Assembly: GCA_026004615.1 (NCBI GenBank) | Contig: BPJM01000001.1 | Span: 443,482 to 507,481 of the forward strand | Source of the DNA: Planctomycetota bacterium | GTDB taxonomy: Bacteria > Planctomycetota > J058 > J103 | Reading direction: 5' to 3' | DNA length: 64,000 nucleotides | In this document: piece by piece, positions 3,651 through 24,819 of the stretch | How the letters are laid out: each line of letters begins with the position of its first letter | Numbering within the stretch: the first letter of the stretch is position 1 | The notes under the pieces: generated by a model | Databases searched by the model: none | What the model was told of the DNA's origin: nothing | The model's input: the letters and a program-made list of their open reading frames with translations, nothing else | Made by a program: the position numbers and the translations under genes

Positions 3651-3673
3651 ATCATCCGCGACCTCCGGGTTGA

Positions 3674-8906: not shown

Positions 8907-10052
8907 CTGCCGGGGTCTGTCCGGTCAGGAGCGAAAAGTCCTTGGGCGTGAGCTCCTGCGTCGTCTGGACGAACCAACCCCACGAACGGGACGGATCCCT
9001 GCCCCGAAAGGCATCGAGCCGGCCCCGGAGCTTCTCGTCGATGGAGACCGGGCGATCGAGGTACATTTGGACCTGCTCGAGGGTGATCGTCCAGGGGTAG
9101 CTCTCCTTTTCCCGCACGGCGGATGCGGTCTATGCTCCGGGCCGCTCTTCACCCGGGCGTGCGCGACGACCCCCGTTCCGCTCGCGTAGAACGCGATCCA
9201 GTCCCCCGCCTGGATCCGGGTTCGGTGGGGGGTGCGGTCTCCAAAAGCGTAGACGCCCTCGGAAAGCAGCCTTTGGATCTTTTCGGCCGCCGAGGAATCC
9301 GCATCGCCGCTTACCGGAGTCAGCCAGCAGGATCCGCCGGTCCTGCGCTCCTGCTCGGTACCGGCCGGCATCGCCGGTTCGAGGGCCTGCCCCTGGGCTG
9401 TCGCCTGGGCAACGATCGTCGAAACGACGCGCACGAGCGGACTGATGCTCGGCTCCGGGGGTTTCAGGAACCGCAGGACATCCGCATGGGGGACATCGTA
9501 ATCCCTCATGAGCTCCGCCAGGGAAAGGAGTTCCTCCACATCGATGACGCGGAGCTGTTCCGTCCTCTTCTCGGCACGGATCGCGTTCTCGATCTGTCTG
9601 GTGTCCGAATCCCGGCGGCCGATGGCGTAGAGTCCGATGGCCTTGTCCCAGCTCGGGATCCGGCGCGCGGAGATCAGCTCGTCGACATATCCCACGAGCG
9701 TCTTCGTTGAAACCGCGTAGGTCTCCGTCGTCTTCACCTCCACGACCACGTGGAACTCGGACGGGGACGTCCACAGGCCGTCGAAGCCGACCTCCCCCCG
9801 GATCCCCCGGTACCGGCCGTACTCGACCTCGAATCCGAGGAGTTCGCCCAGGCGGTTCACGAGGTCCTGGAGGGCCTTGTTGTACTGCTCCTCCGAGGCC
9901 TGGAGGCACTCCTGGACGTAATCCCTCAGAAGGCCGACATCTCCGACCTGGCTTCGCAGGAACCGCCGAAAGCGCTGGCGAGGGGTGTCCTCGCCGGGAC
10001 AGTCATCCAGTTTTCCCACCAGGCTCAGCACCTCCTTGAGCTTCACGGCCAT
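8893..10052 (-). CDS. PD-(D/E)xK restriction-endonuclease-like N-domain fused to an EVE/PUA-like C-domain; one frameshift near 9118-9140
   Basis: ORF 8925..10052 shows GFDGLWTSPSEFHVVVEVKTTE (a D...E-x-K nuclease core) and then IQAGDWIAFYASGTGVVAHARVKSGPE. The reading continues in ORF 8893..9117 (REKESYPWTITLEQVQMYLDRPVSIDEKL...WGWFVQTTQELTPKDFSLL), which is EVE-like. The stop at 8893 overlaps the DUF499 start (8906) by 14 nt. Confidence 0.6.
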
Positions 10053-10109
10053 GTCAGGACCTCCTCCGGCGGGGCGGCACGCCGATACCAGCTTTCCATC
10101 ACGCTCCTC

Positions 10110-11060
10110 CTACGGTCTCTTCATGCGTGCGAACAGCTCGGCCGCGGATTTCTTCAGCCGGCCGAGGTTCGCGTATGCGACCGGCTCGAACCCCCTCTGG
10201 CACGAATACATGCGGTAGCGGATGCCGTCGGTCACGACCACGTCCCGGGGCGTACCGAGCGCTTCGAGGTACCCCTTCGCCTGCTCCAGCGCTCCTTCCA
10301 CGCCCGCTCCCAGGCGCTTCGCCTCGATCACCAGCTGGCAGTTCTCCGGCGTCCGTGGCAGGGCCCGGAACACGGCCACGTCGATGTACCGCCACTTGAC
10401 GGCGATGCGTTCCGGCGGCCAGCCCAGCGCCCGCAGGAACGGAACCACGAAGTGCGCGACCATCTCGTCCTCGCTCGGGTGCTCGCCGAACGCCTGCCGA
10501 TCCCCCACGCGCAGGACGAGGTCGTTCGCTTCCGCAACGAGGCCTCGGAGTGCGGCGGGCACGTCCTCGAGGGGCGGTTGCTCCGGCGGTAGATGCGGCA
10601 AGGCGGCCGTCTGCCAGTGCGTGGGAGGCGAATGCAGGAAGCGGTGGGTATAGTCGAGAACCTCTTCGCTCCAGACGCGCGACAGCCGCCCAGGATTGGC
10701 ACCGAAGACCGGCTTGCCGAACTCATGGGGTTCCGGCAACGGCTGCCAGCGCACGCGGCGCGCGTGCTGGAGGTCCCAGCCGTTCACGTCGTCGAACTGG
10801 TTCAGGTAGAGGTAGTCGCTGGCGACGATCCCGACCGCGCAGATCCTCGAGATCCCGGTCCGTAGCAGGAAGACGTCACCGACCTGGACCTCGCTGGCGA
10901 AGCGGCGGACGAAGCCGCCTTCGAACTCCTGGTCGTCCCGCTCCGCGTTCCAAGGGCCCGCGTCCCCCGGGCCGATCAGGCCGACACCGTACTTCAGGAA
11001 GACGCCGTCATAGGAGCGCACAGCCGGCCCGCCCGAGATCTGCCAAGTTGCGCGCGTCAC
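10110..11060 (-). CDS. Two-domain protein, 316 aa: N-terminal beta-rich putative sensor domain + C-terminal HsdR_N-like PD-(D/E)xK nuclease domain
   Basis: Part of ORF 10110..11270. The likely start is GTG at 11060, overlapping the upstream TGA (GTGA at 11057-11060). The C-terminus reads MVAHFVVPFLRALGWPPERIAVKWRYIDVAVFRAL...CQLVIEAKRLGAGVEGALEQAKGY, resembling the type I HsdR N-terminal nuclease domain (D...E-A-K). The N-terminus (WQISGGP...GVGLIGPGDAGPW...VGDVFLLRTGISRICAVGIV) resembles the small sensor modules fused to McrB/type IV enzymes. The N-domain assignment is tentative. Confidence 0.55.
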   Translation of the reverse strand: MTRATWQISGGPAVRSYDGVFLKYGVGLIGPGDAGPWNAERDDQEFEGGFVRRFASEVQVGDVFLLRTGISRICAVGIVASDYLYLNQFDDVNGWDLQHARRVRWQPLPEPHEFGKPVFGANPGRLSRVWSEEVLDYTHRFLHSPPTHWQTAALPHLPPEQPPLEDVPAALRGLVAEANDLVLRVGDRQAFGEHPSEDEMVAHFVVPFLRALGWPPERIAVKWRYIDVAVFRALPRTPENCQLVIEAKRLGAGVEGALEQAKGYLEALGTPRDVVVTDGIRYRMYSCQRGFEPVAYANLGRLKKSAAELFARMKRP

Positions 11061-11680
11061 TGTGTCGTCCGTCTTTGCGCGCCGAGTTGGCGCAGATGCG
11101 CGCGCAGGTCGTCGAGAAACGCCTTGAGCGATGTATCCTGCTTGCCTGCGCGGAACCAGTCCATCTTTTCGACGAGGTCGCGGGCGAACTCGATCCCGCC
11201 GAGGGTGAACGGGTGGCCAGCCATCCGCACAGCACTGGCGAGTAACTGCTTGTAGTGACCCCTTGTGCACTTCTTTTCACCGACCACGGGGCGGTGACCG
11301 ACCACATCGTTGAATGAATCCGGATCTGCGAGGTACCAGCGTTCCACGTGGGGATCCGGGCAGGCGGCAACCACTCTTCCCTGAAGTTCCTGCGTGGTCG
11401 CACTCGCGATCTCTTTTTTCTTGTCTGCGAACGTCGTACAGTTGCCGTCTATGGCTACGACCACGAGCTCCGGCGGCGCCTCCCCGAAGGCACCCCTCTG
11501 TATCAGCTTCTGGTACGTCCCGAACTCCGCGATGGCCCGGCCGTGTCCGCCTCGCGCGGAGCGAACGCGGAGTTTGACCTTCACCTGCTCCTCCTTCGCG
11601 ACCCGCTCCACAAGCGGCACCAAAAACTCTTCGTGCGCACGATCTTCCACAAACAGATCGATGAGGAGAACGTCACTCAT
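11057..11680 (-). CDS. DUF4276/TOPRIM-like small protein, 207 aa, partner of the upstream ATPase
   Basis: ORF 11057..11680: MSDVLLIDLFVEDRAHEEFLVPLVERV...PELVVVAIDGNC... It has an N-terminal acidic E motif plus a later D-x-N/D motif, as in OLD/TOPRIM-like DUF4276 proteins. The start overlaps the ATPase stop by 8 nt. The family call is from memory. Confidence 0.6.
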   Translation of the reverse strand: MSDVLLIDLFVEDRAHEEFLVPLVERVAKEEQVKVKLRVRSARGGHGRAIAEFGTYQKLIQRGAFGEAPPELVVVAIDGNCTTFADKKKEIASATTQELQGRVVAACPDPHVERWYLADPDSFNDVVGHRPVVGEKKCTRGHYKQLLASAVRMAGHPFTLGGIEFARDLVEKMDWFRAGKQDTSLKAFLDDLRAHLRQLGAQRRTTQ

Positions 11681-12908
11681 CCAGCAGCCCCCTCATGAGC
11701 ATGCTCTCGAAGAGGCCGTCCTCGGTGCCCGCCGTGAGGGCGGCGGCGATCTCCTGGTCCTCGACCACCGCACCGGTGACAGCGAACGGTTTGACGATCG
11801 TCTCCCCGCCCGCGCGGTGGACATTGAAGAGCCCGATATCCGCCGGCCTGGAACGGGCGTGCTTGAGCACCGCATCGCAAAAGAGCGGCGAGTGCGTCGT
11901 GACAACGACCTGGCGGTTCTGCTCCAGGGCCAGCGAGAGCAGAAGCTGGGCGATCAACTCGAGTCTGCGCGGGTGGACGCCGTTCTCGGGCTCCTCGAAG
12001 CCGACGAGGGAGCCGCCCCACGGGTTGACGGCGATGGCGCAGAGCGCCAAAACACGGAGCGTTCCCTCCGAAACGATGCGCGTGGAGTAGTCGACGCCGG
12101 CCTGCCGGATGAGGACATCGAGCGTGCCGCGCCGCTTGTCCAGATCGACGGCCAGCTCCTCCACGCTCGGGACGATCGATCGCAGGGTGCGAAACACCGC
12201 AGCAAAGCGCTTCGGCTGCTCGGCCCGAAGCCGATAGAGGAACGGCGCGATGTTCTCGCCGAGCACGCCGATATCGCGCACGTCGGATGGAGGCCGCTCC
12301 GCGCGCATCGCCACGCGTGGATCGAGGTAGTAGATACGCCACGCCGTCAGCTCCTGGCGCACGCGCTCCAACGCGCGGTACTCCACACCCCCGAAGCGGC
12401 TGTCCGACAGGACCGTGTGGTTCAGTCCTAAGGGCTCAGTACGGGGGTGTGCCGGCTTGCTTTTCCGGCGGATTCGCAATTCCCCATCGACCTGTTCGAT
12501 TTGGGGTCTGCCCTTCGGTTCGCCTTTCGCCCCAAGTTGGGCCAGGTACTCATCGGCCACCGTCAGTCTTCCCGATGCGGGTTCGATTCGAACGGCAAGC
12601 CGGTACCGGTACGAATCCCTCCCGTCATCGACATCTGCGCTCAGCTCGAAGCGAGCGTCGGAACAAGCCAGAAGTGCCGGAAGCCCCTGGGGAGGGAAGG
12701 AGAACGCCTCGATCTGCCGGCCACGAATCGGGTCGCTCAGCGCGTCCGCGAGCGTGCGCTCCGTGCCGAGCCGCGACAGGGCCAGGATCGCATCGAGGAG
12801 ATTGCTCTTCCCAGCGGCGTTGGGTCCGAAAAGCACCGCAAAGCGAGGGAGGTCCACGCTCAGGTTGGCCAGGGACTTGAAGCCCTTGACGGTCAGCTTC
12901 TTCAGCAT
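11673..12908 (-). CDS. ABC/SMC-fold ATPase (AAA_15/AAA_21 class), 411 aa
   Basis: Internal ATG at 12908 within ORF 11673..14321: MLKKLTVKGFKSLANLSVDLPRFAVLFGPNAAGKSNLLDA (Walker A), LVGFEEPENGVHP (Walker B/D-loop), VVVTTHSP (H-loop). GAGGAGG lies 4-10 nt upstream. Everything 5' of 12908 in that ORF is out-of-frame methyltransferase sequence. Confidence 0.85.
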   Translation of the reverse strand: MLKKLTVKGFKSLANLSVDLPRFAVLFGPNAAGKSNLLDAILALSRLGTERTLADALSDPIRGRQIEAFSFPPQGLPALLACSDARFELSADVDDGRDSYRYRLAVRIEPASGRLTVADEYLAQLGAKGEPKGRPQIEQVDGELRIRRKSKPAHPRTEPLGLNHTVLSDSRFGGVEYRALERVRQELTAWRIYYLDPRVAMRAERPPSDVRDIGVLGENIAPFLYRLRAEQPKRFAAVFRTLRSIVPSVEELAVDLDKRRGTLDVLIRQAGVDYSTRIVSEGTLRVLALCAIAVNPWGGSLVGFEEPENGVHPRRLELIAQLLLSLALEQNRQVVVTTHSPLFCDAVLKHARSRPADIGLFNVHRAGGETIVKPFAVTGAVVEDQEIAAALTAGTEDGLFESMLMRGLLDE

Positions 12909-12918
12909 CGAGACCTCC

Positions 12919-15900
12919 TCATCGTGGCACCGCCAGGAGCATCGCGTCGAGCAGGCGCTTCTCCTCGCTGCCCTTCGGGTAGAGGGCGGAAAGCGCGTTG
13001 GCCAGCCGCAGGAAGTCCGGCCCGCGCTCTGCTCGGCCTCGAGGAGCGCGCGCAGGGCATTCGCCTGCCCGCTGGCCTGCAGCAGCATGGCCGCGTGCAC
13101 GCGGTCGAGCGTCGTGCCGCCTCGCCGCAGTGGCCTCGCGGTCTTTTCAGTTCCACCTCCGAGGCGTCGATGAGCCCCTTGCGCCGCCGGCCCCGCGCCG
13201 CGGCCCTTCGGGGGCGCGTTCCGCTCCATCTCCGGGAAGAGCACCTGCTGGAGGTTCTTCTTCGGGTCCTCGGCGATCCAGTCCGCGCCGCCTCCGCGCC
13301 CTCGCCGCCGAAGAGTCTGCCTGGCGCGCTCGCGGACCGCCATCAGAGCGGACCACGCCCTTTTTCGTCTCGATGATGCGGCCTTCCCATCTGGGAAGGT
13401 CGATTCCCAGCGGCTGGGCGAAGCGGCGGACGACGTCGAAGACCAGAGTGTAGCCCCTGCCCTCGCTTTCGCCGAGCGGCTTCTCTTCGTCCTCGCTCCT
13501 CTTCGTCCTCGTCGGCTCGCCTCGCCGGCGTTCCTGCTCCGTGCCGCTGGCCGGTGGTCCTGCAGGGTCCAGAGGAACAGCGCGGTGAGCCGCGCGTCCT
13601 CCTCCAACGCCCCGGCCGCGCCGTTGCGGGCCTGCGCCTCGGCCGTGCCGAGCACCTGTTCCAGCGCTGTTCGGCCGACGACCTCCCAGACCTTCTCCAG
13701 GTACTCGGCCAGTGTGACCTCGCGCCCCTCGGCGGTCTCGACCTTGCGGTAGCGGCTGAAGATTTCGAGCGCCGGGCCGATGCAGGCGAAGACGAGGTCC
13801 GCGCCGCGGATGCCTTCGGCCTGCAGGCGCTCCATCCAGTCGCCGACGCGCCGGGGCAGTTCGCGCAGGACCTCCGCCCAGTCGCCCACCGGGGCATCTC
13901 GGGCCGCGGGCGGCAGACGAGGTGAACGCTGGTGGCGAGGGCGGCGGATTCGCGGGACCGCAAGCGGCCCGGTCGTTCCGTAGCGATCGGCCAGGAGCCG
14001 GTGATTGTCCAGCCGCCGCGGATCAGCCCGGAAAGGAGCGCCTCCCAGCCCTCCGTCGTCTTGTGGGCGAAGACGACGAGCCCACGCCGTCCTCCGCGCA
14101 GGACGCGGCGCCCTTCGGCGAAGGCCTTCGCCATTGTCTCCTCGAACCACGCCCGGTCCTTGGTGCGCCCGTCGTCCTTCTTGGTCTCGTCCTGTACGGC
14201 CTCGCGCTTCTTCGGCGTCGAGCGGGTTCTCCGGATCGAACGGGTCGCGCAGGAGCGGATGCTCCGGCAGCGCGCGCTTGAGCCAGACGAGGAAGAAGTC
14301 CGAGAGGTCGGCGTAGGGCACCGCGTCGTAGTAGGGCGGGTCGGTGAACCAGACGTGCGCCGTCTCGTCGGGGAGCGGGTGCTCGGTGGCGTCGGCGGGC
14401 TGGACCTGGCCGGAGCGCGACCGGGCCAGGCTTCACGACGCTCGCAGCCCAATCGACTGCACCTTCTAGCGTTCCGACGGAATCCGCCCAGAGTCAGCTT
14501 CGCGAAATCCCAGACGATTGGCAGCGCTTGCCGGCCAAAGTGTGCGCTCGAACTCGCCGCTCTGGCTCCACGAACACCGAGCTACCGTAGTCGCGCACTG
14601 CCGATCACGCAAGGCCATCGCCGCCCGCACGCGCCGTCGTCCGCTCCGGCCGCTCCCGCACCAGCCGCGCCAGCGTCACCAGCGCCACCTTCTGCCGCGC
14701 GGTGAAGAGGTCGCCCCACTGGAGCATGCCGTAGCGCTGCACGCGGAACGCCGCAGCGTCCGACCGCCGCCGCGGCAGTGGCTCATCCGGCACGGGACAC
14801 GGCCCCCGCTTGCCGCCGCGCTCCCACTCCTCGAGCATCTTCGCGAGCCGCGCCTGCGCCTTGCGGACCGCCTCGTAGTCGCGCTCGGTCGGCAGCCGGT
14901 AGTGCCGCCCCGCTCGCCGGGCCTGAGCGTCACCACCGCCAGCAGCCGCGCCCCGCCCGTGCGCCGCCCCCTCGTCGAAGACGACGTCCGCCCCGCCGCG
15001 CTGGGCCGCAAGCTGCGCGCGCACGCGCTCGGGCGGAAGCACAGCGCCGCAGCCAGGCACGTCGCCTTGGCGCGCGCTCACCGTGCCGCGGGAACCTCCG
15101 TCTCGCTCTTCGGCTCGAAGATCTCGAACGCAACCTCCGGCGGCTTTCCGCCGGGCGCTCCACGCGGTAGCGGAGCGCGCGCCTGCGGTTCGCCTTCTTG
15201 CACAGCCAGAACGAGCGCACGAGCGGAATCTCCGCGCCGCAGTTCGGCGACTCGCAGCGCACCGTCCGCGCCCAGAGGTAGGCGATGGGTGTCGCGCCGT
15301 CCGGGTCCTTCGGGTAGAGGTCGGCGAGCTCCTTCTCGGCCTGCTTTCTTGATCTCCGCCCCCACCCGGCGCAGCTCCTCGGCCAGCTCCGGCCCGTGGC
15401 GCGGGATGTCCTCGAGCATGACCTTGAGGATCAGGCAGGCGACCGGGTTGAGGTCGCTCGCGAACGCCTCGCAGCCCACCCGCAGCGCCTCCAGCGGGAT
15501 CGAGCCGCCCCCCGCGAAGGGGTCCACCACCAGCGGCGGCTCCTCCGGGTACGCCGCCTTCGACGAGCGCCCGGGCCACTTCGAGGTAGGTGCGGTTGGC
15601 CGCCAGATCCCAGTTCGCGAAAGTCCGCGATGAAGCGGAGCAGCGCCCGCCGCAGTCCTCGTCCGTCTGCCCGGGTGGCAGCCGCCCACCTGTCCGGCAG
15701 CAGCCGCCGCGCCTCCTCCTTGAATCGCCGCGGGCACAGCGGATCGCACGGATCCGGCCACAGAAGCGCCAGAGCACCGCCCGGCACGACGCCAGCGGCC
15801 GCCGCGCCCACCAGAGGTGCAGCGTCGACGGATGCCCGTGCCGGATCGACTTCTCCCGCGCCGCGTGCTTCGACACCTCGGCAATCGGAAAGTCCACCTC

Positions 15901-15930
15901 GGCCAGGCGCTTGCAGTTTTTGGCAATCAT
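12919..15930 (-). pseudogene. DUF1156 (COG1743) Zn-ribbon DNA methyltransferase, full length (~1004 codons) but readable only across many (I estimate 8 or more) frame changes
   Basis: Start [52 protein letters not shown] (ORF 14605..15930). Further blocks follow in different frames. They are [23 protein letters not shown] (ORF 15431..16012), [43 protein letters not shown], which is the SAM motif (ORF 15078..15926), and [22 protein letters not shown], the Zn ribbon (ORF 14930..15262). Next come VVFAHKTTEGWEALLSGLIRGGWTITGSWPIATE (ORF 13343..14452) and then blocks in ORF 11673..14321. The true end GPDFLRLANALSALYPKGSEEKRLLDAMLLAVPR-TGA is at 12919. Confidence 0.85.
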
Positions 15931-17123
15931 GCGCCTTCCCCTGCTGACGCATCACCCTCGGCCGGCGAGGCTTTATCCTCACGCGGTAACATTTCCTTCT
16001 CTCCCACTGCATTCCGGACTCGCTGAAGGCACAGTTTTGATCTACAATCGCTGCAGATCCGGCTCCAATGCGAGTCCAGGCTGTTGCGCCGCTCCGAAGG
16101 TGGCCTCAAGAAATTAACTGTGTTCGCAAACTTCTCGAAGGCGTCAATCTGGACATTGTCGTCATCCGTAAACTCGTAACGTCCCGCCTTTTTCAAAAGG
16201 CACTTGACGACAAGAGGGAATGCAATGCTGGCCAATGCCAAATGCTCAAGTGGGTTCCACACCATGGGCTGCGCCGTATTCAGCTTCCCATGTGCGAAAT
16301 CCCCCCGAATTCGATAAAACTCGCGCATCCATTCGTAACGGAGGAACTGCTTAGTATCCTGCCACCTTTGCGATCGCCGGGTTGCGTCACGAGCTAACAA
16401 AGGTTCGGTGGGGACCACTACCGCGGCGAATTTCGCGGCTACATCCTTTGCGTCGGGTTTCGCGCCCAGGATGTGCTCAAACGCGCTGCACAGCAGAACC
16501 CACTCCACCTGGTAACGAACGTTTTCGCTATCCGTGTTCGCCTGATTGAAGCATGTGATCGCGTTCTGCCACTTGGCCCAGGAGTTGTTGCTGGTCGCTC
16601 CTCGATGAGATATGAGTGCCTTCAGGAGGGTCTCGTCCAGCCTGACTTCCGGTATCCCATGGCAATGAACGGGAACGGTGATGGCGATGTGATCAATCGG
16701 CCATGTGCTTAACGTTTCACCCTCTCGACGACGAGTTGTGATGGCTGTGAAGTCGGCCCTGTCGAATTTCTGGATGTAGAGCGAGAAGCAGTCGCTATTG
16801 CAATAGGGACCGAGCTCATTGAAGTATTCGCGCCTGGCCAGCCCACAGAAACAAGCTATGGCCACGAGTTCACGGATTGTTTCCCGCTCCTCCTCGTTCA
16901 GATCGTCTATCACTGATTTACCGGCGTAGCGGGCGATGGCGGCACGGTCTACCGGTTTGGCCTGGATAGTCTTATAGGTTGCCAGAATCGTGTTGACGCG
17001 ACATTGTGCGGCCCCGTCGAGACCTTCGATGGGTTGGTGACGCTTAAAAGGCAGGATCTGTAGCTGGCCTACGTCGTAGGCCTTATCGATCCTGCACCAC
17101 GGCAAGAATGAAACCATCGACAT
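15927..17123 (-). CDS. HEPN-like (Rx4H) protein, 398 aa, possibly Apea-like HEPN; markedly lower GC than its surroundings
   Basis: ORF 15927..17123, uninterrupted. It contains [14 protein letters not shown] (an R-x4-H HEPN-type motif) in an alpha-helical-looking C-terminal half. A hand count of one 60-nt line gives ~52% GC, against ~70% or more for neighbours. Its TGA overlaps the DUF1156 ATG (ATGA at 15927-15930). Confidence 0.6.
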
Positions 17124-17126
17124 TGG

Positions 17127-17410
17127 CTACTTCGCCCTCTCCCAATCACCGCGAGTTCCGTACGTCGCACTCTCCTCACGAACCCCCATTGGTTTCGTCA
17201 GAGCATCCACCGACAGGCAGTAGTGGGCTACCTTCGTGACCTCGCGCCAGTCGAAGCGCGCAGGGTCCTTGATCGGTTCCTGGAGCTGCGCCTTGGTGGC
17301 GCCTGCCTGCGCCGCGCCCCGGGACGCGGCAGGGAGGCCGTTGGTGACCAACGCAGAGCGAGTAGCAGTCGTGTCGGTCTTGGGCCGCGCGGCGGTCCTT
17401 CGGGTGGGAC
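17127..17410 (-). pseudogene. Orphan duplicate of the helicase 3' end (DUF3883 tail), with indel/frameshift
   Basis: ORF 17127..17351 reads ...QLQEPIKDPARFDWREVTKVAHYCLSVDALTKPMGVREE, against the helicase end ...QLQEPIKDPARLEWHEVTKVAHYYLSVDAMTRPMQVREE. DNA similarity extends to about 17410 (PKDRRAAQDRHDCYSLCVG vs PNERRVAEDRRDCYWLYIV in another frame). Confidence 0.8.
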
Positions 17411-17419
17411 CGCATTGTC

Positions 17420-17568
17420 GGGCGCGATGTGAGGCGCTGCTTGGCCAACCGAGGTGCAGCGTCGAGGGATGTCCGTGCCGGATGCTTTTTTTCCCGCGGC
17501 GCGTCCCGCGAGACTTCCGCGATGGGGAAGTCCAATTCAGCGAGGCGTTTGGGGGATTTGGGGATCAT
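17420..17568 (-). pseudogene. Orphan DUF1156 5' fragment (~50 codons, frameshifted), fused directly to the helicase 3' fragment
   Basis: ATG at 17568: [28 protein letters not shown], then after a frame change [15 protein letters not shown]. This is homologous to the first ~50 codons of the DUF1156 gene at 15930. The ATG overlaps the HNH gene TGA (ATGA at 17565-17568). Confidence 0.8.
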
Positions 17569-18059
17569 CGCTGCGCCCCTTCCCAAATCTCGCGGATGTC
17601 GGTGCACCGTCGCTTCAGCGTGAAAGCAACGGTGTGTCGTTCGTACGCCATCTTGAGAAAGAGACCGGCGGGGATCCGGGGCAGGTCGTCCTTGTTCCGT
17701 CCCAGCTCGTCGCACCACCAGGTGACAAGATCCTTGTCGTCTTTCGACCGCGCGCACTCGTCGCAGGCGTGGACGAGGTTCTGCATGCCGACAGGCCCGC
17801 CCAACCGGCGGGGCACCACCTCCACCGGCACCGTCGTCCCCTGACTTCCGCAAAACACGCATAAGCCCGGCTGCTGAGCCAGCTTTTGAATCTCTCGATC
17901 ATACTCCGACATGCGGATCTCCCCGCTCTTCAACCGCTTGTATTGGTCGATGATGAAGCGGTAGTTGGCCTTCTGCCCGGCAGACACGGCGATCACCAGC
18001 TTGGCGTAGTAGTAGAGAATGAAGTCGCCAACGGTTCTGGGAACGGCTGGGGACGGCAT
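17565..18059 (-). CDS. HNH-like (beta-beta-alpha-Me, Cys4 zinc) protein, 164 aa, with non-canonical catalytic positions
   Basis: ORF 17565..18059: CVFCGSQGTTVPVEVVPRRLGGPVGMQNLVHACDECARSKDDKDL matches the CxxC...DHxxP..GG...NL...CxxCNxxK HNH layout. It has EV in place of DH and A in place of the N after the second CxxC. The start is 3 nt after the RadA-like stop. Confidence 0.7.
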   Translation of the reverse strand: MPSPAVPRTVGDFILYYYAKLVIAVSAGQKANYRFIIDQYKRLKSGEIRMSEYDREIQKLAQQPGLCVFCGSQGTTVPVEVVPRRLGGPVGMQNLVHACDECARSKDDKDLVTWWCDELGRNKDDLPRIPAGLFLKMAYERHTVAFTLKRRCTDIREIWEGAQR

Positions 18060-18062
18060 GGC

Positions 18063-19340
18063 TCAGCCCTCGCCAAACAGATCCGGCCAGAGCTTTTGCA
18101 GGAGGCCTTCCAGGTCCGCAACCGGAACGATCTCCACCGATTCCCGGACCGCCGGTCCGCCTGCGTCGGGGCGCATGCTTGCCAGATCGGAGGCGCACTC
18201 GGCCGCAATATAGAGTCTCCTGATCTTCCCCTCCTGTGGCCCGGTCAAGAGCTTCGCCAAGGCAGCGAGATACATGCGGTCGGGCGGCCGGATCCGGCGC
18301 GTGAGATCTAGTTCCCCAACGAACAGCGCGCCTGCCGGAACCGGCCGCTGCAGGTAGGAGCTCAAGAGCGCCACCGCAATCGGCAGATCCAGCTCCTCTC
18401 GGTAGCGCTGCTGTCGGGGCACGTAGCAGTTGATCTCGTAGGAGAGATCCGTCAGGTCGACCTCCTTGATCGTGCTCAGAATGCTGAGCAGCTGCTTGAC
18501 CTTCTTGCCCGGCAAAAAGGGAGCGTTTAGTTCCGGGCGCGAACCATAACGCGGCAGCGTCACGGAAGCCTGGCCCTCGGCGAACTCTTCGCCGATTCCA
18601 CTGTAACCCAGGACGGCAGCGCTCTTCGCGGCCCGATGCGGCGATTCCACCAGGCGGCCGCGCTGGTCCATCATGAGGACGAGCGGATCCAGGACGGCCG
18701 GTCCGAACCGATTCTTGGGCACGAAGAAGGGCCGCAGACGAAAGGCCCGCCGGATGTACATGACGCAATCCACATTGTGCTCCAGGTCCTTCGGGCCGGC
18801 GATCTGGCCTTTCTTGGTGACGTGCCCGATCAGGATCGAAACCAATCCCTGTGCCTTGGCGTTTTCGCCGAATTCATAGAGCGCCCGGTACTTGCGGGAT
18901 GCGGTCGAGGCCAGCCCCCGGCCCTGCACCGAGTCGACGACGATCGCCTGAATGCCGTGGTAGGCCTCTCCTTCCGTGAGCACGCGCCGGGCGAGAAAAC
19001 GCGGCAGCGCGTCGACGTCCTCGATTGCGTCGTCGAGGAAGAAGTTCTCCAGAATGGACTTCGGAAGGCGCCCGCCGGCGTCGCCGTGAATGCGGATGAT
19101 GGCGCGCTTGAGGTCGGCCAGCCCCTGCTCGGTGGTGAGGTAAAGCGACCGGATTCCCTGCCCGGCAAAGTCGCCCAGCACCTGCATGGCGAGCGTCGTC
19201 TTCCCGATGCCCGGTTCGCCCGCGACAAGGTAGACCCCGCCCCGGATGAACCCGGGGCCGATGGCCTTGCCCAACCAGGGCAGGGTTGAAACGGGAATGC
19301 GCTCGGGCCCCTTGTCTGTAATGTCCTCGATCTTAGGCAT
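18063..19340 (-). CDS. RadA/Sms-like protein lacking the N-terminal zinc finger: RecA-fold ATPase + Lon-protease-like C-domain, 425 aa
   Basis: Internal ATG (19340) of ORF 18063..19412: MPKIEDITDKGPERIPVSTLPWLGKAIGPGFIRGGVYLVAGEPGIGKTTL (Walker A), AIVVDSV (Walker B) and FFVPKNRFGP (the RadA-specific KNRFG motif). The C-terminal DLPIAVALLSSYLQRPVPAGALFVGELDLTRRIRP is the RadA Lon-like P domain. Confidence 0.85.
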   Translation of the reverse strand: MPKIEDITDKGPERIPVSTLPWLGKAIGPGFIRGGVYLVAGEPGIGKTTLAMQVLGDFAGQGIRSLYLTTEQGLADLKRAIIRIHGDAGGRLPKSILENFFLDDAIEDVDALPRFLARRVLTEGEAYHGIQAIVVDSVQGRGLASTASRKYRALYEFGENAKAQGLVSILIGHVTKKGQIAGPKDLEHNVDCVMYIRRAFRLRPFFVPKNRFGPAVLDPLVLMMDQRGRLVESPHRAAKSAAVLGYSGIGEEFAEGQASVTLPRYGSRPELNAPFLPGKKVKQLLSILSTIKEVDLTDLSYEINCYVPRQQRYREELDLPIAVALLSSYLQRPVPAGALFVGELDLTRRIRPPDRMYLAALAKLLTGPQEGKIRRLYIAAECASDLASMRPDAGGPAVRESVEIVPVADLEGLLQKLWPDLFGEG

Positions 19341-19414
19341 GGTCGTCCTGCAGATACCGGCGGCAGTCTGCCTTCGGGTGCGGCTGCATCCGCATGTGGG
19401 GCGTCGGATCAAGC

Positions 19415-19626
19415 CGCGGGATCGCGGGGCGGTGCGACTCGCACAGGCCTGGCCAGAGGAGCGCCGGCACCGCCGCCCGGCACGGCGCCAGCGCCCGCCT
19501 GGCCCACCCCAGACGCAGCGTCCAGGGATGCCCGTGCCGGATCGACCTCTCCCGCGCCGCGTGCTCCGAGGCCTCGGCGGTCGGGAGGTCCACCTCGGCC
19601 AGCCGCTTGCACTCCTCGGGGATCAT
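19415..19626 (-). pseudogene. Orphan DUF1156 5' fragment (~68 codons)
   Basis: ATG at 19626 (ORF 19333..19710): [65 protein letters not shown]. This is colinear with the DUF1156 start at 15930. Similarity is lost near 19415, 75 nt before the RadA-like start. The ATG overlaps the upstream TGA (ATGA at 19623-19626). Confidence 0.85.
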
Positions 19627-20228
19627 GCCGTTTGCTCGATCAGACGCCTGAGGCAGTCGAGCGCGCGGCGGAGGCTCTCCGAGCGCTCGGCCGCCACCGC
19701 CGGGCGCCACTTCGTCTGCACGTACTCGATGAGACGCGAAGAGTAGGCCGGGCCGACCGAGCGCCCACTTCGCTCGCGCGGCACCATGTCCTGCCGAATC
19801 GCGCTGCGCCGCGACCGGCGCGCCAGCTCCACCATGGCGACCTTGGCGTTCGGCAGGCTCTCTGGGTTATCGGGGACCTTGGCTTGCGCGACCCCGAGGT
19901 AGCCGGCCAGGGATGCACGATCCGCCATCAGCCACGCCTCGACCTGCCGCACCGCGACGCGAAAGCAAAGCAGCGGAGCGGGATTGGGAAGCCAGTTCTC
20001 TCGCAGCGGCGGCGCGCAGTCCGCGTCGCTGTCGAGGTCCACGAGGACCAGCCACGGCGTGCGCCGGGCAGCGTTGTTGTAGCCCTGGATCTTCCTCCGC
20101 AAGTCCTGCTTGCCGTTCTGGCCGTATACGCGCCCGGCCTGCCCGCCTGCGCAGGCGATCAACTTCCGCGCCACCACCGCGTCCAGGGGCCCCTCGACGG
20201 CCGCATGGATCACCACGGGGTTCGGCAT
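19623..20228 (-). CDS. TOPRIM-like (DUF4435/DUF4276 class) small protein, 201 aa
   Basis: ORF 19623..20228: VIHAAVEGPLDAVVARKLI (conserved E) and PWLVLVDLDSDADC (DxD), the two acidic motifs of TOPRIM/OLD-type nuclease domains. The start is 2 nt after the ATPase stop. Confidence 0.65.
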   Translation of the reverse strand: MPNPVVIHAAVEGPLDAVVARKLIACAGGQAGRVYGQNGKQDLRRKIQGYNNAARRTPWLVLVDLDSDADCAPPLRENWLPNPAPLLCFRVAVRQVEAWLMADRASLAGYLGVAQAKVPDNPESLPNAKVAMVELARRSRRSAIRQDMVPRERSGRSVGPAYSSRLIEYVQTKWRPAVAAERSESLRRALDCLRRLIEQTA

Positions 20229-20230
20229 CG

Positions 20231-21382
20231 TCAGAGATCTCCAAACAGCGGGAGCCGCTCCGCGCGCTCAGGCCGTGTCTTCGGGATGACGGCGTCGGCC
20301 AGCGTCAGGCCGCCGTCCAAAAGATCGCGGATCTCGCGGTGCGATGCGGCAATGGTCACCTCGGTGCCCTCGCGGCCGGGAACGAGCAGCACCACCTCGT
20401 CGAGCCCGATCCCCTCGTCCCGCAGGAGCTCCGGCGAGTGCGTGCTGAGGAAGATCTGCCGTCCCGTCCGGCGCTGGACGCGCGCCAGCATCTGCGGCAG
20501 CACACGGACGATCCCAGGATGCAGGGAGAGCTCCGGTTCTTCGAGCAGCAGCGGCCCCTCCTTTTCCATCGCTGCCCACAGGAGTCCCATCAAGCGAAGG
20601 GTCCCGTCCGAGAACTGCTCCTCGGTCTGCCACGCGCCTCGCGGCCGCCAGTGAGCGTACTTGCCGCGAAGGTGTGGTGTGCCGCGAGCGTCGCGCCAGA
20701 GCTCGACCTCCTCCAGTTGCGGGACCGCGACGCGCAGGGCTTCCCGGATGCGCCGCAGGCGCGCGCTCCGCGTCCGCTCCGGCGTCCTGGCCACCTGCTC
20801 CAGGAAGTCCCCCCCGAAGGGATCGTTCGAGCGGCCCACGGAGCGGTCGGGCTCCCGGACGAGCTGCGGGACGATGTGCAGGTAGCGGATGGATGCGAAG
20901 AACGTCGCGACCTCACGGAAGTCCCGATTCACGTTGACCTGCTCGAGGAAGGTCTGGCTGAGGCGCGCGGGGTCGGCCTCGTCGTCCTTGTTGGGCCGCT
21001 CGAGAAGTGTCTCGCCGCCGCGCAGCACGCGCTCCTTGCGCAGGAGCGCTCGCCGCTGTTGGTCCTGGCTGAAGGCGACCTCGTACGTCCAGCGCGGCCC
21101 GTCGTGTTCCCTCTGCAGCTCGACTGCGACCTCGATGGCCGGGTAACGCCGCGCGGCCAGGCATCGGATCGCGCTCACCCCACCACGGCGACCGACGGCT
21201 TCCTGAAAGCCGCCGCCCGTCGAGGCGAGATCCCGCAGGAAGCGAAACGCATCCAGGAGATTCGACTTGCCCGAGGCATTGGGACCGACGAGGAACAGGC
21301 GGTCGCCGATCTCGATCTCGACCTCGGCGAAGTTCTTCCAGTTCGTCAGGCGAAGTTTGCGGAACTTGAGGGGAGAGCTCAT
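20231..21382 (-). CDS. ABC/SMC-fold ATPase (AAA_15/AAA_21 class), 383 aa, paralogue of 11673..12908
   Basis: Internal ATG (21382) of ORF 20231..21490: MSSPLKFRKLRLTNWKNFAEVEIEIGDRLFLVGPNASGKSNLLDAFRFL (Walker A), LLLEEPELSLHP, IFLSTHSPELL. The ATG overlaps the helicase TGA (ATGA at 21379-21382). Confidence 0.85.
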   Translation of the reverse strand: MSSPLKFRKLRLTNWKNFAEVEIEIGDRLFLVGPNASGKSNLLDAFRFLRDLASTGGGFQEAVGRRGGVSAIRCLAARRYPAIEVAVELQREHDGPRWTYEVAFSQDQQRRALLRKERVLRGGETLLERPNKDDEADPARLSQTFLEQVNVNRDFREVATFFASIRYLHIVPQLVREPDRSVGRSNDPFGGDFLEQVARTPERTRSARLRRIREALRVAVPQLEEVELWRDARGTPHLRGKYAHWRPRGAWQTEEQFSDGTLRLMGLLWAAMEKEGPLLLEEPELSLHPGIVRVLPQMLARVQRRTGRQIFLSTHSPELLRDEGIGLDEVVLLVPGREGTEVTIAASHREIRDLLDGGLTLADAVIPKTRPERAERLPLFGDL

Positions 21383-24300
21383 GGTTCCTCCGGTGTCCTG
21401 TACGGCGGGGCTTCCTCGCGCACCTGCATCGGTCGCGTCATCGCATCCACCGACAGGTAGTAGTGGGCCACTTTCGTGACCTCGTGCCACTCGAGGCGCG
21501 CAGGGTCCTTGATCGGCTCCTGGAGCTGCGGCATCGCCGCGCAGTTCGTGACGATATACAGCCAGTAGCAGTCGCGCCGGTCCTCGGCCACGCGGCGTTC
21601 GTTCGGCGTGAGAAGGATGGTGCCCGTGGCCTCCGCCAGCCCCTTCACCTCGATGAGGCGCAGCTCCCCGGAGTTCAGGTCCAGGCTCGTGAGGTCGTAG
21701 CCCAGGTTCTTCTCGTGGACGTCATAGACCTGCCGGCCCTGGGCGCGCTCGTAGTCCATGACCACGCGCATGGCGATGGCCTCGGTCTCCGGGTTGGGCT
21801 GGAGTCGCCGGACTTCCGGCGTCTCGCGCTCGGGGTGGGGCAGAACCAGGACGCTCGCCATGCGTTCCACGCCTTGTAGCGTCAGCGAGCGCTGCCGCTC
21901 CAGCTCCTTGCGCCGCCGCTCCCGCCGCTGGCGCAGCTCCTCATGCCGGGCTTCGGCCTGGGCGAGACGCCCTTCCGCGCCCTGTTCCCCGCGATCCACG
22001 GCTTCCTGCGCCCGGCCGATCTCCTCGTCTGCCCGCTGCAGCAGCTCGGTGAGGGAGAGCTCGACGTGGGCCGCAATGCGCTCCACCTCGGCCAGCCGCT
22101 CCTCCCGCGTCTCCTCCAGAAAGGGCACGAGCGCATGCGTGTGGATCCACGCCGCCGCCTCGGGAAGCATGGCCACCGCCGGGAGTGTTTGCGGCGCCTC
22201 CGCCGGCGTCAGGTCACCCAGCAGGCTCGGCTCGCGCAGGCACGGCTCCCTGTCCTCGGCGATCTCGACGGCGAACAGGCGTTCGTGGACCACCTGGCCC
22301 ATGCCATCGACGATGCGGGCCCGGTAGAAGTCGATGCGCGCGGGCGCGTCGTGCTGAAGCGAGTAGAACGTCGCTCCCTTCCCGAAGGTCTCGAGCGCCT
22401 GCGCGTAGGTATGCCGCCGGATCGCCTCGAACAGGGGGTGGCCCGGCGTGACCCATTCCAGGTTGTGGGTCTCCGCCGTCTCGCGATCCGTCGAACAGCG
22501 AGGGTACCTGGCCGCCAGTGGAGGCAGCTTCCAGCTCGGCTCGCGCTCGTAGCGGCGCAGCACCGACGGCGTCCTGCCCGGCTCGAAGGTATGGGGAAGG
22601 CGCGGAACCGTCTTGAGCGTCAGGGGTACAAAGTCGGCCGCGTCCCGGATGAAGCGAGCAATCGTCTCGGGCACGACTCGCCGCTCTTGAGCCCGCGCCC
22701 GGCGCTCGATGAGCATCTCCAGATTGAGTTTCTTCGATGCGAGCCCCTCGAGCGCGTTCTGGCAGATGGCGCGGAACTGGCGCTCGTCCACGTTCCTCAG
22801 GAGCCGCTCCTCGAGGTCGGCCTCGCCGAGCCGCCCCGCGTAGTAGTCGCGGAGCACACGCTCCACGTGGGCCGCAGGCAGGATCTCGCCGACCACGTTG
22901 AAGACGGCATCGTCGTCGAGGGCGTCGCGGATCTCCTGGAGCTTCTCCAGCAGCCGCTGCAGCACCCGGCCCTCGATCGTGTTCGTGGCCACGAAGTTGA
23001 AGATCAGGCAGTCCTTGCGCTGGCCGTAGCGGTGGATGCGGCCCATGCGCTGCTCGAGCCGGTTCGGGTTCCACGGGATGTCGTAGTTGAACAGGATGTT
23101 GCAGACCTGGAGGTTGATGCCCTCGCCCGCCGCCTCGGTCGCCACCAGGATCTGGATCGCCCCCTCGCGGAACTGCTGTTCGGCATGAAGCCGCGTCCCT
23201 GGCTCGTCTCGCGATCCCGGTTTCATTCCGCCGTGGATACAGCCCACGCGAAAACCCCAGGACTCGAGCCGCTCCACGAGGTAATCCAGCGTGTCCTTGA
23301 ACTCCGTGAAGATGAGGAGCCGCTTCTGCGGGTGGTCGAAAAAGCCTTCCTGCTGGAGCAGCTCTTTCAGCTTCGAGAGCTTGGCCTCCACGCCGGAGTC
23401 CTCGACCGTCCGGGCCTGGGCGGCGAGTTGTCGGAGCTCCTGGACCTCCTCCCGGACCTGCTGGGCGTTGCCCGCGAGGGTGATGGCTTCCAGCGTTTCT
23501 TCCAGCCTCTCGCGCTCGCTTTCCTCCATCTCCTCCAGCTCTTCAGGGTCGGGAAGGTCCGGCGGCGCCAGTCGAGCGAGCTCATGGGCTCGCTTCAGCC
23601 CCTCCTCCAGGCGCCTGGCCCGGTTCTCGAGGGAGTGCCGCATCGCGTACGTGCTGGAAGCCAGCCGCCGCTGATAGAGGGACATCAAGAAGCCGACGGC
23701 GCGCGCGCGGGGGTCGTCGCCCTGGGCCGCAGCCCTGGCGCTCTGCCGCTTGACGAAGCGCGTGATGTCGCGGTAGAGCTCGAACTCCGCCCCGTCGATC
23801 TGGAACTGCACGGTGTGCGGGATGCGCTTCGTGAAGATCTTCCTGGCCACCCACGCTCCGTCGGACCGGCGCTCCGGGAAGTACACCATCGCCTCCTTCG
23901 TTCGGCGCAGGTAGAAGGGCGCGCGCCGGCGATCCATGGCCTCGCGGATGGACCGGACGTCCGCATAGGCGTCCGCATCGAGGAGCTGCAGGAACAGGCT
24001 GAAGTTGCGCGGATCGCCCTTGTGCGGCGTGGCGGTGAGCAGCAGCATGTGGTCGGATGTGTCCCGCAGCAGCTCGCCCAGCTTGTAGCGCAGGCTCTTG
24101 TGGGTCTGGTCGGCCGCCGACATCCGGTGCGCCTCGTCGACGATGACCAGGTCCCAGTGGACCTGCCGAAGCCCGGGAAGGATCTCCTTGCGCTTGGCCA
24201 GGTCGAGCGAGGTGATGATCTTGTTTCGCTCCAGCCACTGGTTGACGCCGAACTGGTCGCGGATGGCGTCGCCCTTGAGAACGAGGAACGTCGCGTCGAA

Positions 24301-24819
24301 CTTCTCCTTCAGCTCCCGTTGCCACTGGAAGGCGAGGTTGGCGGGACAGACGACGAGAATGCGTTCGGCCAGGCCCCGCAGTTCCAGTTCGCGGATCAGC
24401 AGCCCGGCCATGACGGTCTTCCCAGCCCCGGCGTCATCGGCAAGGAGGAACCGAACCCGGGCGAGCTTGAGCAGGTAGTCGTAGACGGCCTCGAGCTGAT
24501 GCGGCAGCGGGTCGACCCGGGAGATGGAAAGGCCGAAATAGGGGTCGAACTCGTAGGCGATCCCGAGGGAGTACGCCTGCAGTCCGAGTCGAAGCAGGCG
24601 CCCGTCGCCGTCGTAGCTCTGCCTGGTGGCGATGACGGTGAGCCGCTCGAGATCGCGCCTGGTGAGGGTGACCTTGCGAAACCGCTCCGACTCGGTGCCG
24701 ACCAGACCCACCACCCACGTGTCGGGCCCGTGCGCCTGAACGGTCTCCACCCGCATCGGCTCGCTGAACAGGGGTCCCGCGAGGATCTGGCCCTCGGTGA
24801 GCGCCCTTTGCTCACGCAT
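21379..24819 (-). CDS. SNF2-family helicase with C-terminal DUF3883 (nuclease-like) domain, 1146 aa, intact
   Basis: ORF 21379..24819: LADDAGAGKTVMAG (motif I), VIVDEAHRM (II), LLLTATPHKGD (III), ILVATEAAGEGINLQ...YDIPWNPNRLEQRMGRIHRYGQ (V/VI). The C-terminal LGYDLTSLDLNSGELRLIEVKGLAEATGTILLTPNERRVAEDRRDCYWLYIV matches DUF3883. Confidence 0.9.
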   Translation of the reverse strand: MREQRALTEGQILAGPLFSEPMRVETVQAHGPDTWVVGLVGTESERFRKVTLTRRDLERLTVIATRQSYDGDGRLLRLGLQAYSLGIAYEFDPYFGLSISRVDPLPHQLEAVYDYLLKLARVRFLLADDAGAGKTVMAGLLIRELELRGLAERILVVCPANLAFQWQRELKEKFDATFLVLKGDAIRDQFGVNQWLERNKIITSLDLAKRKEILPGLRQVHWDLVIVDEAHRMSAADQTHKSLRYKLGELLRDTSDHMLLLTATPHKGDPRNFSLFLQLLDADAYADVRSIREAMDRRRAPFYLRRTKEAMVYFPERRSDGAWVARKIFTKRIPHTVQFQIDGAEFELYRDITRFVKRQSARAAAQGDDPRARAVGFLMSLYQRRLASSTYAMRHSLENRARRLEEGLKRAHELARLAPPDLPDPEELEEMEESERERLEETLEAITLAGNAQQVREEVQELRQLAAQARTVEDSGVEAKLSKLKELLQQEGFFDHPQKRLLIFTEFKDTLDYLVERLESWGFRVGCIHGGMKPGSRDEPGTRLHAEQQFREGAIQILVATEAAGEGINLQVCNILFNYDIPWNPNRLEQRMGRIHRYGQRKDCLIFNFVATNTIEGRVLQRLLEKLQEIRDALDDDAVFNVVGEILPAAHVERVLRDYYAGRLGEADLEERLLRNVDERQFRAICQNALEGLASKKLNLEMLIERRARAQERRVVPETIARFIRDAADFVPLTLKTVPRLPHTFEPGRTPSVLRRYEREPSWKLPPLAARYPRCSTDRETAETHNLEWVTPGHPLFEAIRRHTYAQALETFGKGATFYSLQHDAPARIDFYRARIVDGMGQVVHERLFAVEIAEDREPCLREPSLLGDLTPAEAPQTLPAVAMLPEAAAWIHTHALVPFLEETREERLAEVERIAAHVELSLTELLQRADEEIGRAQEAVDRGEQGAEGRLAQAEARHEELRQRRERRRKELERQRSLTLQGVERMASVLVLPHPERETPEVRRLQPNPETEAIAMRVVMDYERAQGRQVYDVHEKNLGYDLTSLDLNSGELRLIEVKGLAEATGTILLTPNERRVAEDRRDCYWLYIVTNCAAMPQLQEPIKDPARLEWHEVTKVAHYYLSVDAMTRPMQVREEAPPYRTPEEP

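Follow-up and report, generated by a model that had tools for sequence, protein, structure and literature searches.

A candidate stacked array of defence cassettes in the hmaA-hmaB embedding site of a planctomycete Hma operon

Introduction

How do defence genes come to lie inside the operons of other defence systems, and how can several of them gather in a single gap? We addressed this question in a 64,000-nt stretch of a Planctomycetota genome (the window; positions are counted from its first letter), which carries an Hma anti-phage operon of three core genes, hmaA (helicase), hmaB (methylase) and hmaC (ATPase). The operon lies on the minus strand, as do all window features described below, and the surrounding sequence has a GC content of 70%. 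Its hmaA-hmaB gap holds five embedded genes, which make up three cassettes, and truncated ends of hmaA and hmaB lie between them; the scarred and stacked feature extends from about 15771 to 21660. We conclude that the region is very likely the hmaA-hmaB embedding site of the operon, filled with a head-to-tail array of three defence cassettes that were stacked by recombination leaving scars.

Embedding in operons of Hma, BREX (bacteriophage exclusion), DISARM (defence island system associated with restriction-modification) and type I restriction-modification (RM) systems has been used to discover anti-phage systems ("guilt by embedding"). Among 1,485 Hma systems, 62.7% were reported to hold embedded genes, and nine Hma-embedded candidates (HEC-01 to HEC-09) were named (Payne et al., bioRxiv 10.1101/2024.01.29.577857). 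In that survey no gap could hold more than three embedded genes, and loci with pseudogenes or with more than one copy of an hma gene were excluded; the words recombination, remnant and truncated do not occur in its text, which, apart from the idea of a "genomic sink", does not settle how embedding arises (bioRxiv 10.1101/2024.01.29.577857). Scarred, stacked loci like that of the window were thus left out of it. An earlier note on this DNA had proposed a cassette-shuffling hotspot within a defence operon; the hotspot is real, but it was already published in the form of "Hma-embedded" genes.

Results

Truncated ends of hmaB and hmaA separate the cassettes

The 5' end of hmaB was found three times. 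Copy A is the start of the full-length gene (15930), and the other two are orphans: copy C (19420-19626; 207 nt, about 69 codons, no internal frameshift) and copy B (17412-17568; about 157 nt, about 52 codons, with +1 and -1 indels). Copy C was 84% identical to copy A over 156 nt, and copy B was 70-76% identical to copies A and C. A tblastn search with intact HmaB as the query detected copy C with E = 1e-19 and copy B with E = 2e-6. A second, orphan hmaA 3' end (17127-17405; 279 nt, the last ~93 codons) was found in addition to that of the full gene, which ends at 21379. It was 80-86% identical to the full copy, contained a 36-nt insertion, a frame change and a Shine-Dalgarno-like run (GGGAGAGGG), had no single reading frame, and ended with a TAG stop 3 nt ahead of the ATG of the 398-codon gene that follows (p398). 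Copy B passed directly into this hmaA end at ~17405-17412, so that the two form the 5' and 3' halves of a linker between cassettes. The repeated pieces were far beyond chance, yet short. The three diverged methylase starts (15930, 17568 and 19626), the second helicase end and the head-to-tail fusion of an orphan start to an orphan end, all claimed in the earlier note, were therefore confirmed, and proper alignment identified the repeated starts as related sequence (70-84% nucleotide identity).

The ORF that begins at the ATG of copy C stayed open for 98 codons, and its TAA overlapped the ATG of the RadA-like gene of the next cassette by 8 nt. About 70 nt (junction 1, 19350-19419) separate the end of the hmaB homology from the start, at 19349, of homology to the RadA-like module of a Chthonomonas calidirosea locus (L089; the loci compared here are numbered with L). 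A sliding blastn search found no relative for junction 1. A short hmaA remnant after copy C (19340-19420) was considered and dropped, as the MAFFT alignment was unconvincing. At one join, hmaB breaks off at nt ~157 and hmaA sequence sets in 279 nt before its stop; at the other, hmaB breaks off at nt ~207 and the next unit sets in ~9-80 nt upstream of the RadA-like start. Judged from these alignments, both joins are illegitimate and are not crossovers in homologous sequence.

The stops of HEC-01B, the HNH gene and p398 each overlapped an hmaB ATG as ATGA, and the earlier note had taken this motif as the common end of every cassette. The three overlaps are present, but the motif proved to be the hmaB start, and the orphan hmaA end stops at TAG instead. 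In nearly all of 54 loci, hmaB begins with ATG-ATY-CC (Met-Ile-Pro); the last embedded ORF stops in the hmaB-start overlap in 27 of the 52 occupied loci; and at the empty sites of L004 and L038 the hmaA stop uses the TGA of the hmaB start. Since this TGA is built into the start of hmaB itself, ATGA is not a cassette signature.

Each unit of the array corresponds to a single-cassette allele

The earlier note had suggested a survey of homologous loci for single-cassette versions of each allele, and all three were found. Cassette 1 consists of HEC-01A (20231-21382) and HEC-01B (19623-20228); the order hmaA-HEC-01A-HEC-01B-hmaB, with no further cassette, occurs in L002, L047, L064 and L035, whose HEC-01A proteins were 72-75% identical to that of the window. 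Cassette 2 consists of the RadA-like gene (18063-19340) and an HNH-like gene (17565-18059), and C. calidirosea has the order hmaA-RadA-like-HNH-hmaB-hmaC. Window positions 19349-17453 matched that locus in one high-scoring segment pair (77.5% identity), which begins 9 nt ahead of the RadA-like gene and reaches 115 nt into copy B; in C. calidirosea the collinear counterpart of copy B is the start of hmaB, which comes after the HNH gene. Cassette 3 is p398 (15927-17123), found alone in the order hmaA-p398-hmaB(-hmaC) in L097, L110, L096, L104 and others. Over 275 nt, the orphan hmaA 3' end shared 80% identity with the hmaA end that precedes the p398 homologue in L082-L084, and the orphan end, p398 and the first ~130 nt of copy A formed one collinear block. 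In a sliding-window search of 17400-15801, the p398-bearing loci L082-L084 were the best match throughout, and the best match switched to other loci near 15800.

The single-cassette alleles and their collinear flanks indicated that the array is made of three truncated single-cassette alleles, placed head to tail. Unit 1 contains hmaA, HEC-01A/B and the first 207 nt of hmaB; unit 2 contains the RadA-like gene, the HNH gene and the first 157 nt of hmaB; unit 3 contains the last 279 nt of hmaA, p398 and hmaB.

The linker between cassettes 2 and 3 is shared with a second genome

The linker was also found in L018, a locus of Pirellulaceae KatS3mg110 from the same hot spring as the window genome. 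Window 17570-17187 aligned with L018 15167-15548 at 76% identity (E = 1e-71), unbroken across the hmaB'/'hmaA junction, and the two linkers had common derived changes in their hmaB part. The cassettes on either side of it differed: L018 has a gene for a SIR2/pAgo-associated-like protein, and a Ppl-like ATPase gene with its partner. Identity between the two genomes at fourfold-degenerate sites was 74.6% in the neighbouring AAA_21 gene and 47.5% in hmaA. The protein of the AAA_21 gene that follows hmaB was 88% identical to its L018 counterpart (L018 22611-23399), and the 3' half of hmaB also had its best match in L018. The window and L018 thus have the middle of the locus in common, but not hmaA or the cassettes.

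The 24% divergence of the linker equals that of the AAA_21 gene at fourfold sites, which indicated that the linker is as old as the hmaB-3'/AAA_21 segment and has evolved approximately neutrally. On these sequence comparisons, hmaA of the window is from a lineage other than that of the linker segment. Because the junction is common to both loci, the scar at 17405 predates their split and was not made in this genome, contrary to what the earlier note had implied for all junctions; because the flanking cassettes differ, they were probably swapped later. A metagenome scan for the junction motif CAAGCAGCGNCNCACATCGCGCC returned 0 matches.

These data bear on whether all three units were instead stacked within this lineage by two recent events, with no part inherited. 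The GC content of p398 (55% in a genome of ~70-75%) suggests a late arrival, and copy C is free of frameshifts over 69 codons. However, the copy B/hmaA 3' junction and the derived hmaB substitutions are common to L018, the junction divergence equals that of fourfold sites in the neighbouring gene, and the differing cassettes point to later swaps. We consider wholly recent stacking unlikely.

In-frame hmaB'::'hmaA fusions recur and may relay translation

Parts of hmaB and hmaA were joined in one reading frame in five independent junctions, for which the chance expectation is (1/3)^5. In the junction common to the window and L018, hmaB ends at codon ~52 and hmaA starts at codon ~1063, and the fusion is now frameshifted. 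In L087, hmaB codon 37 is joined to hmaA codon 1105, in an intact ORF of 88 codons; L028 joins codon 25 to codon ~1108 and has a frameshift and a stop; L013 joins codon 11 to codon ~1083 (intact, 63 codons); and L032 joins codon 5 to codon ~1092 (intact, 65 codons). The stumps of L095 are also in the same frame, but 117 nt of unrecognisable sequence lies between them, and this locus was not counted.

In all three intact mini-ORFs (63-88 codons) the stop overlaps the start of the next long ORF, and in L013 and L087 the mini-ORF start also overlaps the stop of the preceding long ORF. Overlaps are common at both natural ends of the site: the start of the next ORF overlaps the hmaA stop in 29 of 68 loci, and, as noted above, the stop of the last embedded ORF overlaps the hmaB start in 27 of 52. 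These results suggest that the intact mini-ORFs keep translational coupling. Cassettes would then be adapted to two natural coupling junctions, and an in-frame hmaB'::'hmaA ORF would chain two cassettes without breaking translation.

The linkers might instead encode a small functional protein, composed of the HmaB N-terminus and the HmaA C-terminal tail, and be neither scars nor coupling adapters. The conserved QEPIKDPARFEWHEVTKVAHYYLSVDA tail is retained in three of them, whose ORFs (63-88 codons) are intact. The hmaB part, however, can be as short as 5 codons or as long as 52, frameshifts or stops have since interrupted three of the five in-frame fusions (window, L018 and L028), and the window-L018 pair diverged at a neutral rate; a functional product is very unlikely.

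Orphan gene ends in other Hma loci

We searched all fetched loci by tblastn with intact HmaA, HmaB and HmaC. Orphans were found in the hmaA-hmaB gap of 12 of the 54 loci that have both hmaA and an hmaB start, and gaps with orphans were longer (median 4352 versus 1806 nt; Mann-Whitney p = 6.5e-4). The orphans always came from gene ends that face an embedding site, which in hmaA-hmaB gaps are the hmaA C-terminus and the hmaB N-terminus; none from gene interiors was seen in this survey. C-terminal hmaA stumps were present in L001, L013, L018, L032, L040, L066, L074 and L075, and N-terminal hmaB stumps in L007, L018, L028, L059, L060, L062, L071 and L073. Orphan hmaB 3' ends were found downstream of the full hmaB in L073 (23322-23390) and L079 (22345-22476 and 22767-22859), indicating that the second embedding site, between hmaB and hmaC, bears the same type of scar. 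L087/L094 and L095 are further stacked arrays with linkers.

Two orphan-bearing loci had ORFs that run in frame into an hmaA tail. In L040 (6305-7100), an ORF that resembles a RAYT/IS200 transposase, by eye only, lies within the hmaA 3' end; in L001 (~13900-14119), a cassette ORF continues into an orphan hmaA tail.

A proposed recombination route to the array

The HmaA search returned 80 loci (L001-L080) at 74-86% protein identity from more than 10 phyla. For a defence gene this is unusually high identity, and it holds among Planctomycetota, Acidobacteriota, Nitrospirota, Bacillota, Pseudomonadota and Bacteroidota, among others. It implies long stretches of DNA homology between phyla, and incoming DNA from another Hma locus could therefore pair with a resident locus on one side. 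The other end would be joined illegitimately inside the 5' end of the resident hmaB, so that the incoming cassette is added and the old one kept; an hmaB 5' stump would remain as a scar, in some cases together with an hmaA 3' stump. Homology-facilitated illegitimate recombination may have been the route; a single crossover with a circularised fragment would explain the array just as well. The cassettes flanking the 17405 scar would later have been exchanged, presumably with stumps and full genes as homology arms. Of the earlier proposal that helicase-[cassette]-methylase alleles recombined through their conserved gene ends and were stacked instead of replaced, the stacking was supported, and cassettes were seen to travel with their flanks, but the joins are illegitimate.

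In homology-facilitated illegitimate recombination, foreign DNA is anchored by homology at one of its ends while the other is joined illegitimately; DNA is thereby added, and part of the anchor can be duplicated. The process was reportedly demonstrated experimentally in naturally transformable bacteria by de Vries and Wackernagel in 2002. The window array, here known from the product, has the form that such a process would yield.

As to why the scars persist, we hold with about equal confidence for and against that they do so because cassettes are coupled to an upstream hmaA stop and a downstream hmaB start: an in-frame mini-ORF would supply both and relay ribosomes. A wider proposal is tentative and, in our estimate, has the balance against it. 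Hma operons might be recombinase-free, integron-like collectors, in which in-frame mini-ORFs act as portable adapters, offering both homology arms, through which a cassette could leave as a circle by recombination between direct stumps and be recaptured by an Hma locus of any phylum, and a ribosome relay that keeps added cassettes, hmaB and hmaC expressed. Integron arrays consist of promoterless adaptive cassettes that point in one direction, are separated by a recurring linker element and are read from upstream. The window cassettes likewise point in one direction and are separated by linkers. Unlike in integrons, these linkers are stumps of the flanking genes, variable in length and sequence, and movement would need general or illegitimate recombination. 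A repeat search found no inverted repeats in the linkers, although no attC model was run. A scan of 15700-21700 for promoters and terminators gave nothing beyond shuffled expectation, with no sign of sigma-70 promoters or terminators in the stumps.

Placement of each cassette by a transposase or integrase, with the repeated ends as target-site duplications or attachment (att) sites, was also considered. Payne et al. (bioRxiv 10.1101/2024.01.29.577857) report mobility association for about 3% of Hma-embedded genes, and the ORF in L040 has a transposase-like appearance. However, no recombinase, and no integron integrase (IntI), is among the operon-strand ORFs of 6063-24819, all of which have been assigned. 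The copies are also diverged, of unequal length and each closest to loci with the same cassette, whereas near-identical repeats of one set length would be expected of target-site duplications or att sites. This explanation is extremely unlikely.

Soundness of the assembly

The window contig was produced with metaFlye from PacBio HiFi metagenome reads with a read N50 of 10.5 kb, and the genome is the metagenome-assembled genome KatS3mg102 (PMC9671151). The p398 protein was 100% identical to KatS3mg102_0366. Exact-protein look-ups of HmaA, HEC-01A, the 441-residue hmaB ORF and DUF4276_2 found no record. The Logan assembly of run DRR290133, made by a different assembler and probably from the same reads, contained a 3644-nt contig 100% identical to window 19531-15888, which runs from the tail of copy C through both genes of cassette 2, the linker and p398 into the start of copy A.

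Misassembly of the array is unlikely. In its specific form, the concatenation of strain variants of one Hma locus at conserved gene ends by the metagenome assembler, it has an exceedingly small chance of being right, even though the source genome is metagenome-assembled and the Logan contig ends within copies A and C, where other hmaB genes share k-mers. No repeat is longer than 207 nt, and their identity is 70-84%; this is far under what misleads an overlap assembler, and such repeats could not mislead one fed with ~10-kb reads. In the contig of the second assembler, the linker and part of junction 1 were reproduced without a difference. With 75-89% identity to their closest relatives, the units are not from co-existing strains. 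Similar scars occur in dozens of unrelated assemblies, including closed long-read chromosomes and relatives of an isolate, and one scar is common to a different genome at 76% identity.

Several points weigh against stacking and coupling as set out above. The mechanism is read from its products, and a circular intermediate or unequal exchange between tandem loci would fit them alike. The common linker has two carriers, both from one hot-spring community. Because the Logan contig breaks off within copies A and C, it does not cover the join of HEC-01B and copy C, and support by single reads across 15.7-21.7 kb is presumed from the published read lengths. As for coupling, the window linker has three frame changes and p398 has its own Shine-Dalgarno-like sequence; the hmaB stumps of L007, L059 and L087b have no coupled ORFs before or after them; and long open frames arise easily by chance in GC-rich DNA.

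Relation to known systems

Tandem accretion of islands at tRNA or att sites involves site-specific integrases and produces serial units with near-identical att repeats and partial duplicates of the target end. The Hma array is similar in that serial units each have a partial duplicate of a gene end, but its duplicates are diverged and no integrase is present. At P2/P4 hotspots, cassettes are swapped rapidly between conserved flanks, and small remnants that have "lost any recognizable homology" are ascribed to intense recombination (PMC13586616). Swapping of defence cassettes between conserved flanks is common to these hotspots, to genes embedded in type I RM and BREX loci, and to Hma; unlike the P2/P4 remnants (PMC13586616), those of Hma are identifiable stumps of two flanking genes, with defined polarity and frame. 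The window locus resembles published Hma systems in its three core genes, their orientation and the embedding sites, and its cassette 1 is HEC-01 (Payne et al. 2021; bioRxiv 10.1101/2024.01.29.577857). It differs from the published set in its dead hmaB and in having five embedded genes (three cassettes) in one gap.

In the literature searched, which did not cover subscription journals, no description of hma-derived scars or adapters was found. While the hotspot is known, the apparent novelty lies in the stacking scars and their polarity, in the common neutral linker and in the recurrence of in-frame adapters. The scars would be a readable record, according to which cassettes move with the ends of flanking hma genes and are added as well as swapped, and surviving additions tend to carry an in-frame adapter that links two natural gene-overlap junctions. 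The mechanism of embedding and the lasting expression of embedded genes, left open before, become testable. A practical rule also follows for finding multi-cassette arrays, which current pipelines discard for their "duplicated" or "pseudogene" hma fragments.

State of the core genes

From hmaA to the 316-codon gene p386, neighbouring genes of the window overlap or are spaced by at most 10 nt. hmaA (21379-24819) is intact and encodes a 1146-residue SNF2 helicase with a C-terminal NOV_C/DUF3883 domain (PADLOC HmaA, 1.5e-179, residues 7-1091; Pfam SNF2, Helicase_C and NOV_C); its TGA overlaps the ATG of HEC-01A. hmaC (6063-8906) is an intact gene for a 947-residue DUF499 ATPase (PADLOC HmaC, 6.6e-92; Pfam DUF499), 82% identical in protein to that of L001 over residues 6-947.

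The DUF1156 methylase gene hmaB (12919-15930) is full-length, but the "full gene" of the earlier note turned out to be a pseudogene. At 70% identity over 3 kb, a frameshift-aware alignment with intact HmaB (L004) needed ~25 frameshifts and contained 1 in-frame stop. The same method gave 0 frameshifts in 13 of 20 other loci and comparably many only in L031 and L068. A frame plot of GC at third codon positions showed frame chaos only in hmaB and in 1.5-4.7 kb of the window. The gene is also a mosaic, L082-like in its first ~130 nt, L010/L004-like in the middle and L018-like in its 3' half. HmaA and HmaC of an Hma system are thus present and an intact HmaB is not, and the core Hma with its dead hmaB is probably not working as a modification system.

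Decay in the window copy is confined to the adapter and hmaB, while hmaA, hmaC and every cassette gene are intact; the ~25 frameshifts and 1 stop of hmaB stand against an intact hmaA (3.4 kb), hmaC (2.8 kb) and all eight embedded genes. Either the methylase has long been dead with its neighbours under selection, or the neighbours were recombined in later. Recurrent hmaB indels lie outside long homopolymers; the low-gap-penalty blastn used for them over-gapped and is informative only on this absence. Sequencing error as the source of the frameshifts was judged unlikely, though not disproven: the data are HiFi, the lesions are only in hmaB and the stumps, and the adjoining 3.4-kb hmaA is clean. 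In C. calidirosea, hmaB was intact in L089 (1013 residues; Logan ERR368945) and split into 448, 94 and 398 residues in L090 (GenBank GCA_001457975.1), reflecting either strain variation or assembly error.

Embedded genes and the second embedding site

HEC-01A encodes an AAA_21/ABC-type ATPase of 383 residues (PADLOC HEC-01A, 3.7e-161; Pfam AAA_21, 3e-37), and HEC-01B a TOPRIM/DUF4276-like protein of 201 residues (PADLOC HEC-01B, 3.3e-66), whose stop forms the ATGA overlap with copy C; the two genes are adjacent, 2 nt apart, as in HEC-01. The RadA-like protein (425 residues) is a RadA/KaiC-like ATPase with a C-terminal ChlI/Lon-like region (Pfam KaiC ATPase, 3e-11; AAA_25; ChlI), 84% identical to the C. 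calidirosea protein sited between hmaA and hmaB. RadA/Sms DNA repair proteins combine an N-terminal zinc finger, a RecA-like ATPase and a Lon-like domain in a housekeeping context; in the window protein the ATPase is of the KaiC/RecA type and the ChlI/Lon-like match is weak. Its relatives sit in defence loci, embedded in Hma or beside an OLD-type gene, and "RadA-like" therefore describes the fold only. The HNH-like protein has 164 residues (Pfam HNH_5, 5.5e-4, below the family cut-off), its gene ends in the ATGA overlap with copy B, and its pairing with the RadA-like gene is conserved in L089 and L091.

p398, whose GC content of 55% contrasts with ~70% around it, encodes a 398-residue protein of no described family, and its stop forms the ATGA overlap with hmaB. 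The earlier note had listed it as HEPN. R273 and H278 (R-x4-H; RGDFAH) were invariant in an alignment of 33 homologues, in agreement with the HEPN motif R-x4-6-H, but no Pfam or PADLOC match was found. A fold search of its confident AlphaFold model (predicted local distance difference test score, pLDDT, 86) against the PDB gave no match below E = 0.6 (best 0.65), and comparison with the DUF86/HEPN protein 1ylm gave a weak match (template-modelling score 0.51, probability 0.30). We therefore call it HEPN-like tentatively. The family has 306 homologues without annotation; of 62 metagenome loci with a homologue, 23 showed Hma genes. It is the close members that are embedded in Hma loci; the contigs of distant ones (at most 40% identity) had no Hma genes.

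The second embedding site contains genes for an HEC-01A-like AAA_21 ATPase (11673-12908; 411 residues; Pfam AAA_21, 4e-30; PADLOC HEC-01A, 1e-56) and a DUF4276 protein (11057-11680; 207 residues; Pfam DUF4276, 3e-6, below the family cut-off). p386 (10110-11060) follows, with its GTG overlapping the preceding stop as GTGA. A gene of about 316 codons like it, with weak HSDR_N-like and PDC-S02 matches, lies directly upstream of hmaC in about 10 loci (among them L007, L016, L017, L031, L042, L046, L055, L060 and L067), and may be an unrecognised accessory Hma gene and not a cassette. Between p386 and hmaC of the window lies a 375-codon ORF (8925-10052), for which no family match, and no relative among the fetched loci, was found.

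Downstream of hmaC, window 150-4500 is a jumble of broken defence genes. It contains a DpdE-like SNF2 helicase split over two frames, a BrxC/PglY fragment, a fragment of the HmaA Helicase_C domain (3557-3375; 54% identity) and a weak DUF1156 N-terminal motif (3194-3087).

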